DNA of 64,000 bases, taken from an uncultured Gammaproteobacteria bacterium (GTDB taxonomy: Bacteria > Pseudomonadota > Gammaproteobacteria > SURF-13). Below the pieces are notes generated by a model that worked only from the letters and a program-made list of their open reading frames with translations, did not search any database and was not told the origin of the DNA. Positions 5,685 to 58,914 of this stretch are shown piece after piece; the first letter of the stretch is position 1; the number at the start of each line of letters is the position of its first letter. The position numbers were made by a program, and so were the translations under genes. Where the stretch lies: contig CAMTVY010000010.1 of the NCBI GenBank assembly GCA_947085325.1, forward strand, positions 121,276-185,275, in the 5' to 3' direction.

Positions 5685-7430
5685 TTAACTTAGCCGGGCA
5701 GTCTTGGCGAGTTTCAGCCCCACCTTCGCGATCACGTCGTGGTCAATCTCCCGCACCGTGATGGTGACGCTCCCCCATGCCACCCGATCCCCGACAACAA
5801 GCTTGCGGTTGAGCCGGCGCTCCATCAGTTCCGCCAAGGTCAAGGGCTGCTCATCCGGCTCCAGAGCAGCGCCATAAATTGCCGCCACGTCGGTTGCGCG
5901 GGCTGATCCGTTCAACACAAACTCCCCGAAGAAGCGTTGCGTGGAGAGCGGGCCTTCGGCGGGCAGCCGGGCGAAAGCGCGCGCCAGCTTCTCATAGTCT
6001 CCTCCCACAGCTATCACCACGGCCACGTCGCCGACCGTGTACTCCGTCTTCTTGCCCGGAAACACGAGTTGCCCCTCGCGGGCGAGGGCGACACATACCG
6101 CCGAGGTCTCCGGCATAACGCTCCCCAGCAGTTCATTGACGAGGCGACCGATGCATGGCGCATCCGCTTCGACGGGAATCTGGAGCAAGTCGGCGGGCCG
6201 GGAGAGCGGGAGCGCCAGTTCGATGCGATCGATCGGCTCTGCCTGCTGGGGTACCTGCACACGAAACAGGCGCGCAATCCAGGGCATCGTCGAGCCTTGC
6301 GCCACGAGTGATACCAGGACTACAGCGAAAGCCACATGGAACAACAGCGCTGAGTCCTTGATCCCCGCCATCACGGGAAACAGTGCCAGCACGATGGGCA
6401 CCGCGCCGCGCAGCCCCACCCAGGCGATGAAGCCCACCTCGCGGCGCGGAAAATGAAACGGCAGCAGGCTCAGCCAGATGGCGACGGGACGGGCGACCAG
6501 CATCAGAAAGACGGCTACGAGGACGGCGCTGGGCGCGTCCACCAATAGCTTGGTGGGTGTCACCAGCAGCCCCAGCACGAGAAACATGCCGGCTTGCGAG
6601 AGCCAGGCGAGGCCGTCCATGACCCGCAACACATGCCCGGTGGCGTGGGTGCGCCGATTGCCGATCAGCAGCCCGGCCAGATAGATGGCCAGAAAACCGC
6701 TGCCGCCCAGAAGGTTCACCGCCGCGAATAGCGCCAGACCTCCTGAGGCGATGAGCAGGGCATAGAGACCTTCGGCGAGACGCACCCGTTCCAGCAAGCG
6801 CGCCAGCAGGAATCCGCCCAGCGCCCCGCCCGCCGCGCCCAGTCCGAACTGTTGGGTAAAACTCCAGAGCAAGTCCACCGATCCCGGCGATTGTCCTGCC
6901 TTGATCCACTCGACCATGACAATCACCAGGAAAATCGCCATCGGGTCATTTGCGCCGGATTCGATTTCCAGCGTTGACCTCACACGCTCGTTGAGCCGGA
7001 TGCCACTTTGGCGCAGCAACGAGAACACCGCCGCCGCGTCGGTCGAACCCACGATGGCCCCGAGCAGCAAGCCGTAACGCCACTCCAGACCAAGCGCCCA
7101 TACCGTAAATGCAGCCACCAAGCCAGCCGTGGCGATGACGCCGAACGTCGCCAGCGCCAGGGCCGGGCGCAGGGCGACGCGGAAGGTCTGCATATTCGTC
7201 CGCAGCCCCCCATCGAGCAGGATGATGGCGAGCGCCAAGTTGCCGATGAAGAACGCGGTTTGGAAATCGCTGAACTGGATGCGCCCGGGGCCATCTTCAC
7301 CGGCAAGCATTCCCACGCCGAGAAAGATCAGCAGCAACGGCAGGCCAAGCCGAGTCGCCAGCAGGCTCGCGAGCACACTCACGAACAACAGCAGGCCGAT
7401 CAAGAAAAGGAGAGTATTGGCTGTTTCCAT
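5685..7430 (-). CDS. nhaP2: K+/H+ antiporter NhaP2 (CPA1 family) with C-terminal TrkA-C domain
   Basis: CPA1 Na_H_Exchanger core plus a C-terminal TrkA-C regulatory domain, as in CvrA/NhaP2. Start chosen at METANTLLFLIGL; the upstream extension to 7541 is unsupported. Confidence 0.85.
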   Translation of the reverse strand: METANTLLFLIGLLLFVSVLASLLATRLGLPLLLIFLGVGMLAGEDGPGRIQFSDFQTAFFIGNLALAIILLDGGLRTNMQTFRVALRPALALATFGVIATAGLVAAFTVWALGLEWRYGLLLGAIVGSTDAAAVFSLLRQSGIRLNERVRSTLEIESGANDPMAIFLVIVMVEWIKAGQSPGSVDLLWSFTQQFGLGAAGGALGGFLLARLLERVRLAEGLYALLIASGGLALFAAVNLLGGSGFLAIYLAGLLIGNRRTHATGHVLRVMDGLAWLSQAGMFLVLGLLVTPTKLLVDAPSAVLVAVFLMLVARPVAIWLSLLPFHFPRREVGFIAWVGLRGAVPIVLALFPVMAGIKDSALLFHVAFAVVLVSLVAQGSTMPWIARLFRVQVPQQAEPIDRIELALPLSRPADLLQIPVEADAPCIGRLVNELLGSVMPETSAVCVALAREGQLVFPGKKTEYTVGDVAVVIAVGGDYEKLARAFARLPAEGPLSTQRFFGEFVLNGSARATDVAAIYGAALEPDEQPLTLAELMERRLNRKLVVGDRVAWGSVTITVREIDHDVIAKVGLKLAKTARLS

Positions 7431-12586: not shown

Positions 12587-12663
12587 TGCGGGGTGGAGCA
12601 GTCTGGCAGCTCGTCGGGCTCATAACCCGAAGGTCGCAGGTTCAAATCCTGCCCCCGCTACCA
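12587..12663 (+). tRNA. metY: initiator tRNA-fMet (anticodon CAT)
   Basis: Cloverleaf nearly identical to E. coli tRNA-fMet, including the three G-C pairs of the anticodon stem and an unpaired 1:72 (here U1/U72). Encoded CCA. Lies upstream of rimP as in E. coli metY. Confidence 0.9.
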
Positions 12664-12730: not shown

Positions 12731-12757
12731 AGTGGGCCTTGTGCCCACTTTTTGTTT
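12731..12757 (+). terminator. rho-independent terminator/attenuator between metY and rimP
   Basis: GTGGGC-cttgt-GCCCAC followed by TTTTTGTTTG. E. coli has a partial terminator at the equivalent position. Confidence 0.55.
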
Positions 12758-12769
12758 GTGGGGGCGATT

Positions 12770-13234
12770 ATGCGCAAGGACTCCGCACGGTTGCAGGAAC
12801 TCATCGCGCCGCTGGTGGCTGCGTTGGGCTGCGAACTGGTAGGTGTGGTACATGTGCCGCAGGGGCGCCATTCGCTGTTGCGGGTGTACATTGACAGTGC
12901 CGCCGGTATTACGCTCGACGATTGTGAGCGCGTCAGTCACCAGATCAGCGGTGTGCTGGATGTGGAAGACCCGATCAGGGGCCAGTATGTGCTGGAGGTG
13001 TCTTCTCCGGGACTGGAGCGGCCATTGTTCGGCAAGGAGCAGTTTGCGCGCTTTGCGGGCCAGCGCGCCAAGGTGCGGTTACATACGCCCTTGAATGGCC
13101 GCCGCAACTTTACCGGCATGCTGGCCGGGATGCGTGACGGGCAGGTGGTGATAGTGGAAGACGGAGCGGAGTTTGCGCTGCCGTTCGAGAACATCGACAA
13201 GGCGCAACTGGTGCCGGAGTACAGTAGCAAGTAG
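12770..13234 (+). CDS. rimP: ribosome maturation factor RimP
   Basis: MRKDSARLQELIAPLVAALGCELVGV... is RimP. Start at the ATG after the terminator; the longer ORF from 12701 runs through the terminator. Confidence 0.9.
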   Translation: MRKDSARLQELIAPLVAALGCELVGVVHVPQGRHSLLRVYIDSAAGITLDDCERVSHQISGVLDVEDPIRGQYVLEVSSPGLERPLFGKEQFARFAGQRAKVRLHTPLNGRRNFTGMLAGMRDGQVVIVEDGAEFALPFENIDKAQLVPEYSSK

Positions 13235-13320
13235 CAAGAAGCGCGTATGAACCTGTGCGCCCGCTTTTTTCCTGTCACTTGCCACTTGTATCTTGATAAC
13301 TGTAGTTATTAGGTGACGCC

Positions 13321-14831: not shown

Positions 14832-17324
14832 ATGTCAGAGGTTACCGTAAGACAGTTTGCCGACGTGGTGGGAACCACGGTAGAGCGTTTGCTGGTTCAG
14901 CTGAGCGAGGCGGGCCTCGTGGGCAAGGGCGCGGATGACATCATCGGCGACAGCGAGAAGCTGCAGTTGCTGACCCATTTGCGGCGCAGTCACGGCGCGA
15001 GCGATGAGCTGGGAACCGCCGAGCCGCGCAAGGTGACACTGAAGCGCAAGACCGTCAGCGCACTCAAGCTGACCGGCGCGCAAGGCAAGGTCAAAACAGT
15101 GAACGTCGAGGTGCGCAAGAAACGCACCTACGTCAAGCGCAGCGTCCTCGAAAGCGAAGATGCCGAGCGGGTGGCAGCGGAAGTCGCGCTGAAACAGGTA
15201 GCCGCTGAAGCTGTACAGCAGCAGCTGGAAGAGACAAAGAAGGCTGAAGCCCAGGCTGTCGCGCGCATCGAGGAAGATGCGCGGGCGCAGGTGGAAGCTG
15301 AGGCCAGGCTCAAGGCGGCGCAGGAAGCCGCTGCACAAGGCACTGCCGTAACACCGGCAGTGCAGCAGCCGGCCAAGCCGGTAGCCGCGCCTGAGAAGGT
15401 CGACAAGAAACCCAAGTGGCGCGGCGAGCGTGCAAGCGGTACCAAATACGGGCGTGAAGAGCTGCACATTGCCACCGACCTCTCGGGGCGGCGCAAGAAA
15501 AAACATCGGGCGAGCGGCGTGGTTGTCACTGGTGCGCCCAAGCACGGCTTCGAACGTCCCACTGCCCCCATCGTGCACGAGGTCGGCATTCCGGAAACCA
15601 TCACCGTAGCTGAGCTGGCGCAACGCATGTCGGTGAAGGCCGCCGAACTCATCAAGGCGATGATGAAGCTCGGCAGCATGGCTACCATCAATCAGGTCAT
15701 TGACCAGGACACGGCCGCCATCGTGGTGGAGGCGATGGGCCATGTGCCCAAGTTACTGGCAGAGAATGCGCTGGAGGCGGGGCTTGGGCAGGATGAGAAG
15801 CAGGCGGGTGACAAGGTCGCGCGCGCGCCGGTGGTCACCATTATGGGCCACGTAGATCACGGCAAGACTTCGCTGCTCGATTATATCCGTCGCACCAAGG
15901 TCGCGACGGGTGAGGCGGGGGGTATCACGCAGCATATCGGCGCCTATCATGTGGAAACGCCGAAGGGTATGATCACCTTTCTCGACACACCCGGCCACGC
16001 CGCTTTTACCTCCATGCGTGCACGCGGCGCGAAGCTCACCGATATCGTGGTGCTGGTGGTGGCGGCCGATGATGGCGCCATGCCGCAAACCATTGAGGCG
16101 ATTCAGCATGCCAAGGCAGCCTCTGTTCCGATCGTGGTGGCGGTGAACAAAATAGACAAGCCCGAGGCTGACCCTGAGCGGGTACGACAGGATCTGGTCA
16201 AATATGAAGTAGTGCCGGACGATTGGGGTGGCGACACGATTTTCACCAATGTTTCAGCCAGGACCGGCGAGAATGTAGATGCCCTGCTCGATTCCATACT
16301 GGTGCAGGCCGAAGTGCTTGAACTCAAGGCGCACATGGATGTTCCTGCATCCGGCGTGGTGGTGGAGTCGAGCCTGGACAAGGGCCGTGGCCCGGTGGCT
16401 ACGGTGCTGGTGCAAAACGGTGTGCTGCGCAAGGGCGACATGCTGCTCGCCGGTTCCGAGTACGGCCGTGTGCGCGCGCTGCTGGATGAGAATGGTGCGC
16501 AGGTGGACGCAGCCGGGCCGTCGGTGCCGGTGGTGGTGCTGGGGTTATCCGGTACGCCCAATGCAGGCGACGACGTGCTGGTGGTGAAAGATGAACGCAA
16601 GGCGCGCGAGGTTGCGTTGTTCCGGCAAGGCAAGTTCCGCGATGTGAAGCTGGCGCGCGAGCGTGCCGACAAGCCGGAAAATGCCTTCACCCAGATGGAA
16701 GAGGGCAAGGTCAGCACCCTTAACATCATCATCAAGGCCGATGTGCAGGGTTCCGCCGAAGCGCTGACGGAGTCGCTGAAGAAGCTGTCGACGGATGAGG
16801 TGCGGGTGAGAATCATCTCCAGCGGTGTCGGCGGCATCAACGAGTCGGATGCCACCCTCGCCATGGCGTCGCAGGCATTGCTGGTCGGATTTAATACCCG
16901 TGCTGATGCCACCGCGCGCCGCCTGGTGTCCGAGCACGGTGTGGATATGCGCTACTACAGCGTGATTTATAACGTGATCGACGACGTGCGGGCCGCGATG
17001 ACGGGCATGCTGGCACCTGAATTCCAGGAGCAGATCATCGGGCTGGCCGAGGTGCGCGATGTCTTCAAGTCATCCAAAATGGGTGCGGTTGCGGGCTGCA
17101 TCGTGGCGGAAGGCGCGGTGCGGCGCAATAATCCCATCCGTGTCCTGCGCAACAACGTGGTGATCTACGAGGGTGAGCTCGAGTCGCTGCGCCGCTTCAA
17201 GGACGACGTGAACGAAGTGCGCGCCGGCACCGAATGCGGCATCGGCGTCAAGAACTACAACGACGTCAAACCCGGCGACCAGATCGAGGTCTTCGAGCGC
17301 GTGCAGGTAACACGTAAACTCTAA
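14832..17324 (+). CDS. infB: translation initiation factor IF-2
   Basis: GTPase G domain [17 protein letters not shown], full-length IF-2. Confidence 0.97.
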
Positions 17325-17343
17325 AATATAGATATTTAAGAGA

Positions 17344-17424
17344 AAAGATACAAGATACAAGGTACAAGTTAATGACAAACCCGTTCAGTATTTTCTTGTA
17401 TCTTTCCCCTTGTATCTTGTATCT
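17344..17424 (+). promoter_or_regulatory. long perfect inverted repeat (probable RNA hairpin) in the AT-rich infB-rbfA spacer
   Basis: AAAGATACAAGATACAAGG (17344-17362) pairs with CCTTGTATCTTGTATCT (17408-17424) as a 17-bp perfect stem. The right arm ends 6 nt before the rbfA ATG. Confidence 0.5.
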
Positions 17425-17430
17425 GCCTTT

Positions 17431-17811
17431 ATGAAAGAATTCAGCCGAACCCTGCGCATTGCAGAAGACATCAAGCGTGATGTCGCTGCCATGGTGCAAA
17501 GCGAGATCAAGGATCCGCGTGTCGGTATGGTTACCATCTCCCGCGTCGAGGTTTCACCCGACCTGGTGCATGCCAAGGTGTTTGTTACCCTGATGGATGA
17601 CGGGCACGAACTTGCCGCCAGCCTGCAGGCGCTGAATCATGCGGCGGGCTACCTGCGTCGTGCACTGGCGAAACGGCTGCGACTGCGTATCGTGCCGCAG
17701 TTGCGCTTTGTGCATGACGAGAGCGTGGTGCGCGGTGCGCGCCTGTCCGCATTGATTGATGCTGCGGTGGCAGCGGATCGTGGCTCCAGCAAGGCGTATG
17801 ACAAGCAGTGA
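17431..17811 (+). CDS. rbfA: ribosome-binding factor A
   Basis: MKEFSRTLRIAEDIKRDVAAMVQSEIKDPRVGMVTISRVEVSPDL aligns with E. coli RbfA. Confidence 0.9.
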   Translation: MKEFSRTLRIAEDIKRDVAAMVQSEIKDPRVGMVTISRVEVSPDLVHAKVFVTLMDDGHELAASLQALNHAAGYLRRALAKRLRLRIVPQLRFVHDESVVRGARLSALIDAAVAADRGSSKAYDKQ

Positions 17812-54779: not shown

Positions 54780-54855
54780 TGGAGCTGGCGAGAGGAGTCG
54801 AACCCCCGACCGGCTGATTACAAATCAGCTGCTCTACCAACTGAGCTACGCCAGC
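54780..54855 (-). tRNA. tRNA-Thr (anticodon TGT)
   Basis: The reverse complement folds as GCTGGCG-TA-GCTCAGTTGGTAGAGC-A-GCTGA-TTTGTAA-TCAGC-...-GGTTCGACTCC-...-CGCCAGC-T-CCA. The 3' end abuts the low-GC islet. Confidence 0.88.
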
Positions 54856-58373: not shown

Positions 58374-58449
58374 TGGTGGGCCGTGTAGGGGTCGAACCTA
58401 CGACCTACTGATTAAGAGTCAGCTGCTCTACCAACTGAGCTAACGGCCC
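58374..58449 (-). tRNA. tRNA-Lys (anticodon CTT)
   Basis: Reverse complement: GGGCCGT-TA-GCTCAGTTGGTAGAGC-A-GCTGA-CTCTTAA-TCAGT-AGGTC-GTAGGTTCGACCCCTAC-ACGGCCC-A-CCA. Confidence 0.8.
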
Positions 58450-58573
58450 GGTACTAAAACGTGTTTGCCGCAATCTCTGGCAGGGCTGTAATGCCTGTGC
58501 CAGTCACATCCATCTGCCTGGGTGTGTGCTCCCGCTTCACGGGCCTACCCAACGGGGCTGAGGGGTCATATTA

Positions 58574-58650
58574 TGGGGTGAGCGATGGGGCTCGAACCCA
58601 CGACCACCGGAATCACAATCCGGGGCTCTACCAACTGAGCTACGCCCACC
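58574..58650 (-). tRNA. tRNA-His (anticodon GTG)
   Basis: Extra 5' G(-1) pairing with C73 is diagnostic for tRNA-His. Anticodon loop TTGTGAT. Encoded CCA. Confidence 0.9.
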
Positions 58651-58690
58651 ATAATTGGCTGCTAGTGTACTACATTCCTGCATATTCGGG

Positions 58691-58764
58691 TGCGCCCGGC
58701 AGGACTCGAACCTGCTACCCCCGGCTTAGAAGGCCGGTGCTCTATCCGGATGAGCTACGGGCGC
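58691..58764 (-). tRNA. tRNA-Arg (anticodon TCT)
   Basis: GCGCCCG-TA-GCTCATCCGGATAGAGC-A-CCGGC-CTTCTAA-GCCGG-...-CGGGCGC-A. The 3' end reads ACCC, so only CC of the CCA is genome-encoded. Confidence 0.85.
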
Positions 58765-58837
58765 AAAATGGTGTCTCAGGCCGCCCCGGCCTTCGCCCGG
58801 AAGGCTGCTCCGCAGACCCATTTAGCTCCCGACGAAA

Positions 58838-58914
<77 letters not shown>

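Follow-up and report, generated by a model that had tools for sequence, protein, structure and literature searches.

In the 64,000-nucleotide stretch of DNA analyzed here (hereafter the window, in whose own numbering coordinates are given), which derives from an uncultured gammaproteobacterium (contig CAMTVY010000010.1 of assembly GCA_947085325.1), the spacer separating infB from rbfA probably holds one copy of a dispersed, intergenic palindromic repeat, and its transcript is probably a generic intercistronic hairpin rather than a dedicated regulator of rbfA. The element is of a kind already known, though unexplained, the inverted heptamer-repeat intergenic element. Its arms consist of heptads in tandem, which take the form NAG-NNN-C (here AAGATAC) on the 5' side and its complement on the 3' side. 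The family to which such elements belong is multi-copy, occurs in several phyla, is intergenic and has a single polarity, with the purine-rich arm 5' and the pyrimidine-rich arm 3'. The spacer lies within a cluster in which the genes are ordered tRNA-Met (12587-12663), rimP, nusA, infB, rbfA, truB, rpsO and pnp, and it was singled out by an original prediction, made from the sequence of the window, in which it was proposed to be an RNase III processing site or a translational-control hairpin for rbfA or, equally, a protein-binding array.

The description of the spacer given in that prediction was accurate in nearly all respects. The AT-rich spacer contains GATACAA-type heptads, a perfect 17-bp stem, a 45-nt loop and a third partial copy of the heptad (CTTGTATCTT, 17395-17404); the stem closes 6 nt before the rbfA ATG, with 5 nt between the terminal CTG and the ATG, and there is no Shine-Dalgarno (SD) sequence upstream of the start codon at 17431 (Table 1). 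The contrast in composition stands in part: the 106-nt spacer is indeed poor in GC (31.1%, as opposed to the predicted value of approximately 33%), but that of the operon is 61.4% rather than 65%. The heptad arrays extend further than had been described (Table 1). Tandem Repeats Finder (TRF) reports period-7 arrays at 17345-17368 and 17394-17424, and beyond a 7-nt bulge the stem extends inward through pairing of GGUACAAG with CUUGUAUC, for a total of approximately 23 bp. Folding of the RNA yields a very stable hairpin, as had been anticipated, with a minimum free energy (MFE) of -35.3 kcal/mol as compared to -16.4 +/- 2.9 for shuffled sequences (z = -6.4; none of 200 shuffles as low), and an equally good fold is obtained with the opposite strand (-34.2 kcal/mol, z = -4.7). 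When three or fewer mismatches are permitted, the 17-mer has four matches in the window where 0.05 are expected, a number reached by none of 100 shuffles, and a chance origin of the hairpin is excluded. No Rfam family matches the spacer at the gathering threshold or at E <= 10 (the best score, E = 0.23, belongs to a plant miRNA model), and Rfam likewise gives no matches in 15 other element-bearing loci.

The original prediction also depended upon rbfA being translated from a start outside of, and not upstream of, the stem. An in-frame TTG at 17410 lies inside the 3' arm of the stem, and the mechanically called rbfA open reading frame (ORF) begins there; however, ATGAAAGAAT and the N-terminal residues MKEF are kept in all RbfA orthologues while the sequence upstream is not, and ATG 17431 is therefore the true start of rbfA. 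In other spacers of the operon an SD can be read, namely AGGTGA (nusA), GAGG (infB), AGGAG (rpsO) and AAGGAA (pnp).

Evidence that the spacer element is one of many comes firstly from a scan of one genome per species with the pattern GATACAAGATAC-N38-68-GTATCTTGTATC, which describes a GATACAA...TTGTATC hairpin. At least 120 loci were recovered, where our own estimate, based upon 24 specified bases, is that approximately 0.1 would be expected. Among the matches listed, at least 37 assemblies carry the family, with as many as 22 or more copies per assembly; these include 15 metagenome-assembled genomes (MAGs) of GC-rich Clostridia/Eubacteriales (up to 22 matches per assembly), 12 Gammaproteobacteria (Acidiferrobacterales, Thiohalophilus, the isolate Thioalkalivibrio denitrificans ALJD and others, up to four matches each, with sulfur-oxidising species among the carriers), three Peribacteria/Peregrinibacteria of the candidate phyla radiation, two to three Bacteroidota, and one each of Armatimonadota, Nitrospirota, Burkholderiales and 'Muproteobacteria'. 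The genome from which the window derives is not among the matches listed, while related genomes hold at least 4-22 copies each under the strict pattern. Copies are intergenic in 115 of 123 cases by a gene call based on GC content at third codon positions, and the genes on either side are in tandem in 78 of 99 cases, divergent in 16 (16%) and convergent in five. The polarity of the element is strict: the fetched loci comprise 132 with the purine-rich arm first, none reversed and nine solo arrays, and this order holds on both strands. Units are spaced by 7 nt in 497 of 656 steps family-wide, and by 8 nt in 154. In a much larger metagenome collection the reversed arm order was found at only 16 loci. 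Several of these prove to be long palindromes without relation to the family, or another short hairpin, and the others lie in low-GC genomes; given the use of a different collection, the two scans allow a rough comparison only. Neighborhoods of the copies (1,561 ORFs at 120 loci) share no gene family or transposase, and only generic ABC ATPases, response regulators and short-chain dehydrogenases/reductases recur in them. A literature search using the literal repeat sequence returned chance matches to primers only.

Several additional observations were made in the course of inspecting these copies. At many Clostridia loci (L003, L004, L005, L009 and L025 among them; loci outside of the window are numbered with the prefix L), a 17-nt GC hairpin, CGCCGAGCAAGCTCGGC, is nested between heptads of either arm at variable position, and has the look of another, smaller mobile repeat, one for which the heptad arrays serve as insertion sites. 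Many of the Clostridia copies bearing this hairpin share longer flanks (AAATTTGGGGTTTAxCG...), as would a larger miniature inverted-repeat transposable element (MITE). Separately, downstream of pnp in a distant relative of the window organism (L135 9902-10068), a heptad hairpin of another flavor, (GGTGAGN)n ... (CTCACNC)n, precedes a canonical terminator, and again displays AG and CT in 7-nt phase.

Within the window itself, a second and degenerate heptad inverted repeat occupies the rimP-nusA spacer (Table 1). Its CACTTGCCACTTGTATCTTGATAAC side reads AAGATAC AAGTGGC AAGTGAC on the minus strand (units CTTGCCA/CTTGTAT), TRF detects a period of 7 at 13223-13242, and CAAG-N3 matches lie on the plus strand at 13221-13245 and on the minus strand at 13264-13302. 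This copy encloses a canonical terminator-like site at 13241-13260 with a T-run to 13270, and folds with z = -2.2. The pattern CAAG-N3-CAAG-N3-CAAG, with up to two mismatches, has 14 matches in the window as compared to 5.3 expected, 12 of which fall in the infB-rbfA and rimP-nusA spacers.

The window element belongs to a gammaproteobacterial subfamily. The ends of this subfamily share, on both sides, the consensus TAAARR|CAGATACAAG ... CTTGTATCTG|YYTTTA (that is, TAAARR|CAGATAC...GTATCTG|YYTTTA; n = 50 ends), which the window element follows at its right end, its left end being degenerate. The variant units AAGGGGA, AAGAGAA and AAGGTAC recur across the subfamily and are the same ones seen in the window, and gammaproteobacterial copies share the TTTCCCC interruption of the window element. 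Two copies are nearly identical to its 3' portion, each including CTTGTATCTTTCCCCTTGTATCTTGTATCTGCC: L023 matches 17394-17432 at 38 of 39 nt (97%) and L079 matches 17391-17431 at 39 of 41 nt (95%). Elements of the subfamily fill whole spacers. Specifically, stop codons lie 0-7 nt before an element end, often as TAA-NNN-CAG, and start codons lie 5-9 nt after one, with an SD in only one of 17 such starts; translation indicates that these starts are the genuine N-termini of TrmL, FolB, FtsE, LpxB, ProB, UppS, KdsC, SpeA and RbfA (encoded by trmL, folB, ftsE, lpxB, proB, uppS, kdsC, speA and rbfA). Copies are also situated 8 nt upstream of the 5' end of a tRNA-Trp gene and 9 nt downstream of the 3' end of a tRNA-Gly gene, and in L100 the element constitutes the entire 95-nt region between the divergent genes trmL and pyrD.

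A comparative series at the orthologous site, assembled by way of RbfA homologues (percentages below denote RbfA identity to the window), reveals how the element behaves over time. The nearest hairpin-bearing relative (L123, 91%) has the same AAGATAC hairpin as the window. In L124-L127 (78%) and L128 (79%) the hairpin is instead built of TAGTGGC / GAGTAGC units (AGTGGCG/AGTAGCT; in general NAGTRGC), in L129 (74%) of AAGTGAC / AAGTAGC units, and in L155 and L156 (74%) of AAGAGAA / AAGAGGC units. A hairpin is thus present at this site in six of the eight lineages sampled from the clade of the window organism, in four heptad flavors, and the orthologous hairpins fold far beyond shuffled sequences (z = -4.95, -6.33, -4.91, -4.12 and -5.57). 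The last 60 nt of infB remain 88-95% identical to the window in L123, L124, L128 and L129 while the heptads turn over between lineages. The 3' arms align in register with those of five orthologues, with CT invariant every 7 nt, and AG is likewise invariant in the 5' arms of all four flavors; when whole spacers are aligned with MAFFT, the 3' arms align well and the 5' arms do not. A terminal CTG-YYTT(T)A-TG is kept in L123, L124, L128, L129, L154 and L156, and across flavors only the AG/CT phase and the terminal CTG-YYTTTA-TG are conserved. The four assemblies L124-L127 are independent representatives of one population and have identical spacers, indicating that the arrays are not hypervariable on short time-scales.

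Two lineages lack the hairpin. The spacer of L122 (94%) is 21 nt (TCATTCTCCTTGTATTGAT) and that of L154 (75%) is 28 nt and keeps GCCACTCGC, each a remnant of the right arm only; both are deletion derivatives, and the element has been deleted twice. More distant relatives (L132, 58%; L135, 60%) have short, unstructured spacers. In another (L130, 63%; 5895-6000), the spacer carries an unrelated GC-rich hairpin followed by UUUUGUUUUGAUUUG, a U-tract, which is terminator-like in the manner of E. coli t3 and contains no heptads. The conservation and co-variation of the arms that the original prediction named as a check are seen in the series: the same site is occupied in six lineages and both arms change together. 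Absence of the spacer structure from close relatives, which would have counted against the prediction, was observed in part: two relatives have lost the heptad hairpin and the distant ones never had it, yet six lineages keep it. Taken together, the orthologues show that the position and pairing of the hairpin have persisted, that the sequence of both arms has been replaced together, and that loss is tolerated.

Several findings bear on whether this co-variation reflects RNA or DNA. Transcript-level selection would tolerate G-U pairs in the sense strand only. In the 78 tandem-context copies, G-U pairs number 142 in the sense and 160 in the antisense direction, and the mean MFE is -40.7 kcal/mol sense and -41.5 kcal/mol antisense; neither difference is significant. 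At a pair of orthologous loci in two Acidiferrobacterales MAGs (L041 2517-2619 and L081 2326-2428), the element has been inverted whole: it is identical at 96 of 103 positions to the reverse complement of its counterpart as compared to 76 of 103 in the forward direction (43 of 47 vs. 24 of 47 in the center), while the flanks are identical at 52 of 60 and 57 of 60 positions in the same orientation. Loops, moreover, are shared between loci in either orientation, with 167 pairs above the 99.9% null among 99 non-gammaproteobacterial loops, mostly of Clostridia (two null pairs), and eight pairs in the gammaproteobacterial set (one null pair). Strand symmetry, flipping and shared loops characterize a palindromic repeat of DNA that undergoes copying, flipping and homogenization. 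Arms can be kept complementary without selection both by template switching, as occurs in quasi-palindromes, and by recombination of inverted arms with one another. Co-variation of the arms can arise from the dynamics of a DNA palindrome, and is therefore no evidence of RNA function. This carries a caution for the discovery of RNA motifs: where an element is a DNA palindrome, the fact that its arms co-vary at an orthologous site does not count as evidence that the RNA has a function.

In the explanation that we favor, an element of this family would spread or renew itself at the level of DNA by whole-element copy-and-paste, by replication slippage within the arrays, or by template switching or recombination between the arms, which would preserve complementarity. 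Once transcribed and folded, the element would bring the stop codon before it to within some 10-20 nt, in space, of the start codon that follows, and it may be tolerated between cistrons because its transcript folds into so compact a stem-loop. Its role within the operon would be at most generic, as a barrier to 3' exonucleases that possibly stabilizes the 3' end of infB, as a possible substrate of a double-strand RNase, or as a modest brake upon read-through or upon access of the 30S subunit to rbfA. Translation of rbfA in this lineage would not depend upon an SD, either with the hairpin or without it.

A number of points weigh against this explanation. In the 64 kb of its genome that the window represents, the multi-copy status of the element in the window organism depends upon the second, degenerate copy only, and none of 124 family loops is significantly related to that of the window. 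A mechanism of transposition is not demonstrated, because no target-site duplication, transposase or shared neighbor gene was found; with regard to the first of these, the longest direct repeats flanking the copies match the null, with the exception of L048, although duplication of a TA cannot be excluded. This sole copy above the null (L048 4850-4990) has one flanking repeat of 10 bp. The element is absent from the collections of mobile DNA searched, with no matches in phage contigs for either arm order and none in plasmids by blastn. Slippage is not rapid, given the identical L124-L127 assemblies. Retention of the hairpin in six of eight lineages could reflect selection for a local function, and the invariant AG/CT phase together with the 5-9 nt spacing to SD-less starts fit selection better than they do a purely selfish model.

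These last two features bring into play an alternative in which the heptad array is read by a trans-acting factor, such as S1, a cold-shock-domain protein with a 6-7 nt site, or the ribosome, and directs SD-independent initiation or coupling 5-9 nt downstream. We regard this as unlikely, although the protein-binding array raised in the original prediction is made more interesting by the invariance of the AG/CT phase across four flavors at one site. The same GATACAA heptad is found in distant phyla and with strict polarity, nine types of gene start 5-9 nt past an element with but a single SD among 17 starts, and precedents exist for heptamers that abut SD-less starts (PMC4679880; Nostoc preprint). 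On the other side of the ledger, no candidate factor has been identified, rbfA is equally SD-less in relatives that have no hairpin (L122, L132 and L135), normal SDs follow those Clostridial copies that were inspected, stop codons or tRNA ends are what half of all element ends face, and the tight spacing may simply follow from insertion into operon spacers of 8-18 nt. A broader version, to which we likewise assign a low probability, would make of the heptad palindromes a cross-phylum, self-renewing class that replaces the whole stop-to-start spacer and whose reader would be a conserved factor, be it S1, a cold-shock-domain protein or the ribosome, with a footprint of 7 nt, such that folding-out of the hairpin or binding of the 3' arm might allow SD-independent initiation or re-initiation. 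A split SD located upstream of the hairpin, and brought near the AUG by its folding, was also considered and was not consistent in the tandem contexts when these were examined by eye, and none of the RNase E, Hfq, IHF, DnaA and Fur motifs is known to fit the heptad.

By analogy with E. coli, the element might alternatively act as a partial terminator or attenuator that lowers read-through from infB into rbfA-truB. The terminator t3 of E. coli lies just upstream of rbfA, where a 4.8-kb rimP-nusA-infB RNA ends (PMC6511841), the L130 spacer has a GC-rich hairpin and U-tract, the rimP-nusA copy in the window encloses a terminator-like site, and the ends of the gammaproteobacterial elements, AAA-GGCAG...CUGCC-UUUA, resemble a bidirectional terminator. 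The window element itself does not have the makings of one: where an intrinsic terminator would show a GC-rich stem, a loop of 3-8 nt and at least five Ts within 8 nt, it has an AU-rich stem, a 45-nt loop and the tail GCCTTTAT, with three Ts after the stem and without the GGCAG/CUGCC clamp on the left, and scans with the sigma-70 promoter and intrinsic-terminator consensus identified no site in it (17200-17550) or in L100. Copies are found 5-9 nt upstream of starts, occur also between divergent genes, and are not enriched between convergent ones (5 of 99). We consider attenuation quite unlikely.

Decidedly unlikely, in turn, is the function first proposed for the spacer, namely a dedicated RNase III site, or a translational hairpin that masks the region upstream of the SD-less AUG, setting the level of RbfA relative to that of IF2. 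Transcribed palindromic repeats, the Correia elements of Neisseria among them, are known substrates of RNase III, and the helix of approximately 23 bp that ends 6 nt from the AUG, with hairpins at the same site in six lineages whose arms change together, would suit such a role. The double-stranded portion comprises 17 perfect bp and a further 6 bp past the 7-nt bulge, a length that would in principle suffice for RNase III, the sites of which take approximately two turns (20 bp or more) of mostly uninterrupted double-stranded RNA. A device specific to rbfA is nevertheless not supported: the same element is found at many unrelated loci, some of them beside tRNA genes or in divergent intergenic regions; relatives with 94% and 75% RbfA identity have lost it, and it is absent at 58-63%; there is no bias toward the sense strand and orientation can flip; and rbfA lacks an SD even where there is no hairpin. 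The precedent that had been drawn from the metY-nusA-infB operon of E. coli holds insofar as RNase III sites do exist in that operon, but they are located near metY, and it is the terminator t3 that precedes rbfA (PMC6511841).

Very improbable is the notion of an AT-rich island with outward-facing promoters that would give rise to leaderless or short-leader rbfA mRNA from TTGTAT ... TATCTT-like hexamers of the 3' arm, for while an element constitutes the whole divergent region in L100, and the TTGTAT-N17/18-TATCTT spacing, as read from the sequence, would put a possible start site near the ATG, the consensus scan called no sigma-70-like site in either place, the terminal hexamer TATCTG is without the conserved final T, and promoters may lie inside the neighboring genes.

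Table 1. Positions of the infB-rbfA spacer element, its parts, the genes that flank it and the second heptad repeat of the window.
Feature	Position	Strand	Remarks
infB (IF-2), ORF	14832-17324	+	TIGR00487, 858 bits
infB stop codon TAA	17322-17324	+	end of IF-2 ORF
Small AT-rich hairpin across infB stop, CTCTAAAATAT / ATATTTAAGAG	17319-17342	+	inverted repeat, 11 nt, 91% complementary; paired in MFE fold
5' arm heptads, AAGAGAA AAGATAC AAGATAC AAGGTAC AAG	17338-17368	+	AG in phase per 7 nt; TRF period 7, 3.4 copies, 94% matches; CAAG-N3 pattern matches
Left arm of perfect 17-bp stem, AGATACAAGATACAAGG	17346-17362	+	exact reverse complement of 17408-17424
Loop, 45 nt	17363-17407	+	inner 6-bp helix UACAAG / CUUGUA (3' side 17395-17400), 7-nt bulge UCUUUCC; MFE structure
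3' arm heptads, CTT GTATCTT TCCCCTT GTATCTT GTATCTG (array opens TCTT)	17394-17425	+	CT in phase per 7 nt; TRF period 7
Right arm of perfect 17-bp stem, CCTTGTATCTTGTATCT	17408-17424	+	exact reverse complement of 17346-17362
Terminal motif CTG-CCTTTA-TG, element end to rbfA start, no SD	17422-17433	+	conserved in orthologues
rbfA, 126 aa	17431-17811	+	ATG start; TIGR00082, 122 bits
Second, degenerate heptad inverted repeat, rimP-nusA spacer	13221-13302	+	AGTAGCA AGTAGCA AGAAGC ... CACTTGCCACTTGTATCTTGATAAC around GC hairpin + T6

Elsewhere in the window, a GC hairpin with a T-run (GTGGGCCTTGTGCCCACTTTTTGTTT, 12740-12770) lies between tRNA-Met and rimP and is nearly identical in the distant relatives L130, L132 and L135; it is probably the counterpart of the t1/t2 attenuators upstream of rimP in E. 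coli. On the minus strand, 60111-60184 matches the Rfam model of the Xanthomonas sRNA sX9 (59 bits; gathering score 44), and five tRNA genes are found at 54783-54855 and 58377-58914, four of them in a tight cluster. The closest named relatives of the window organism by RbfA are Chromatiales and Thioalkalivibrio, not Xanthomonas, and the exact RbfA protein of the window was met elsewhere only on a metagenome contig, Logan SRR4188484_6893.

Taken by itself, the infB-rbfA locus is ordinary once it is recognized as a repeat; it is the family and the comparative series that bear upon an old question. In many bacterial genomes the long simple repeats encountered most often are heptanucleotide repeats, according to the work of Mrazek (2007) as summarized in PMC4679880. 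Their excess in bacterial intergenic regions, known since 2007, has been described case by case (GGGAATC, TAACTGA, STRR) and without a mechanism. The present locus adds a barely described, hairpin-forming heptad family, in which the termini are CAG...CTG, the polarity is single, the AG/CT phase does not vary and distant phyla share one heptad, as well as a natural comparative series composed of four flavors and two deletions at one housekeeping site and an inversion at another locus. The series renders the alternatives testable, whether these elements be selfish DNA that is kept paired by palindrome correction, generic mRNA hairpins, or sites at which a factor reading 7 nt serves SD-less translation; were the last of these true, the excess of heptanucleotide repeats, for which there has long been no explanation, would acquire a function.

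Comparison with known systems places the family among several types of repeat without equating it to any. REP elements, and the related BIMEs and REPINs, are short, multi-copy, intergenic, palindromic and lineage-specific sequences found within or after operons, where the hairpins of their transcripts are able to protect the mRNA upstream. The present family resembles REP elements, and likewise MITEs, in copy number and location. However, REPs are imperfect palindromes of 20-40 nt without 7-nt periodicity, are linked to RAYTs and are rare in divergent promoter regions, while the arms described here are heptad arrays and 16% of copies are divergent; no gene family is shared beside the copies, and thus no link to a RAYT (an IS200/IS605-like Y1 transposase) was seen, although no search aimed at RAYTs was made. 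The Correia/NEMIS elements of Neisseria are MITEs of approximately 100 nt with inverted ends, present in many copies near genes and co-transcribed with them, and their hairpins are cut by RNase III. With MITEs the family has in common defined terminal inverted repeats and, in the Clostridial copies, shared loops and longer flanks; it differs in that no target-site duplication was detected, no parent insertion sequence is known, and the arms are internally repetitive with a variable number of units. The cyanobacterial STRR heptanucleotide repeats, said to have been described by Mazel and colleagues in 1990, are reportedly intergenic, multi-copy tandem heptamers of unknown function that occur mainly as direct arrays and are used for fingerprinting; their heptads differ from the present ones, and the two are set apart by description only. 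As for the operon itself, the window shares with the metY-nusA-infB operon of E. coli the order of the genes, the presence of a structured element before rbfA, in the gap after infB, and a further signal early in the operon (PMC6511841). The E. coli t3, in contrast, has been described as a terminator, the RNase III sites of that operon lie elsewhere in it and there is no sequence similarity, and the window element does not conform to the terminator consensus.

Nearer in kind are the TAACTGA repeats of marine Beggiatoaceae, Cyanobacteria and Bacteroidetes (MacGregor, 2015; PMC4679880), the distribution of which is likewise patchy, crosses phyla and includes sulfur-oxidising Gammaproteobacteria. 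As in the window, these heptamer arrays end a few nucleotides upstream of SD-less starts; they comprise 2-6 units, sometimes split by a related 7-mer, and also occur in ribosomal-protein operons. It has been proposed that they direct SD-independent initiation or coupling at these starts (PMC4679880), and a similar role for heptamers is suspected in Nostoc (preprint). The TAACTGA repeats are, however, direct only (one inverted in 170) and therefore form no hairpin, and they are oriented with respect to genes. The present element, a symmetric palindrome, faces stop codons and the ends of tRNA genes as well.

The closest described kind is that of the GGGNATC heptamers of Xanthomonas and Nostoc (PMC4692102). 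In Xanthomonas, 70-75 pairs of facing GGGAATC arrays per genome lie between aligned ORFs and could form stem-loops (Rehm et al., 2015; PMC4692102). Both types are tandem intergenic heptads, mostly between co-oriented ORFs and with the purine-rich arm first, and among relatives the GGGNATC repeats vary in the number of their units but not in type (single array or inverted pair). Like the inverted heptamer pairs of this LSSR class, the window element is composed of convergent period-7 arrays, 45 nt apart, in a non-coding spacer, and 132 of 132 paired arrays in the family are convergent. Differences between the two are nonetheless apparent. The GGGNATC heptad is G-rich and has been interpreted as forming G-quadruplexes, which GATACAA cannot, and its descriptions include no CAG...CTG termini, cross-phylum sharing of one heptad or abutment upon SD-less starts, all of which are found in the present family. 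The family described here differs further in the turnover of flavors at a single site and in the exact fit of its members between a stop codon and an SD-less start.

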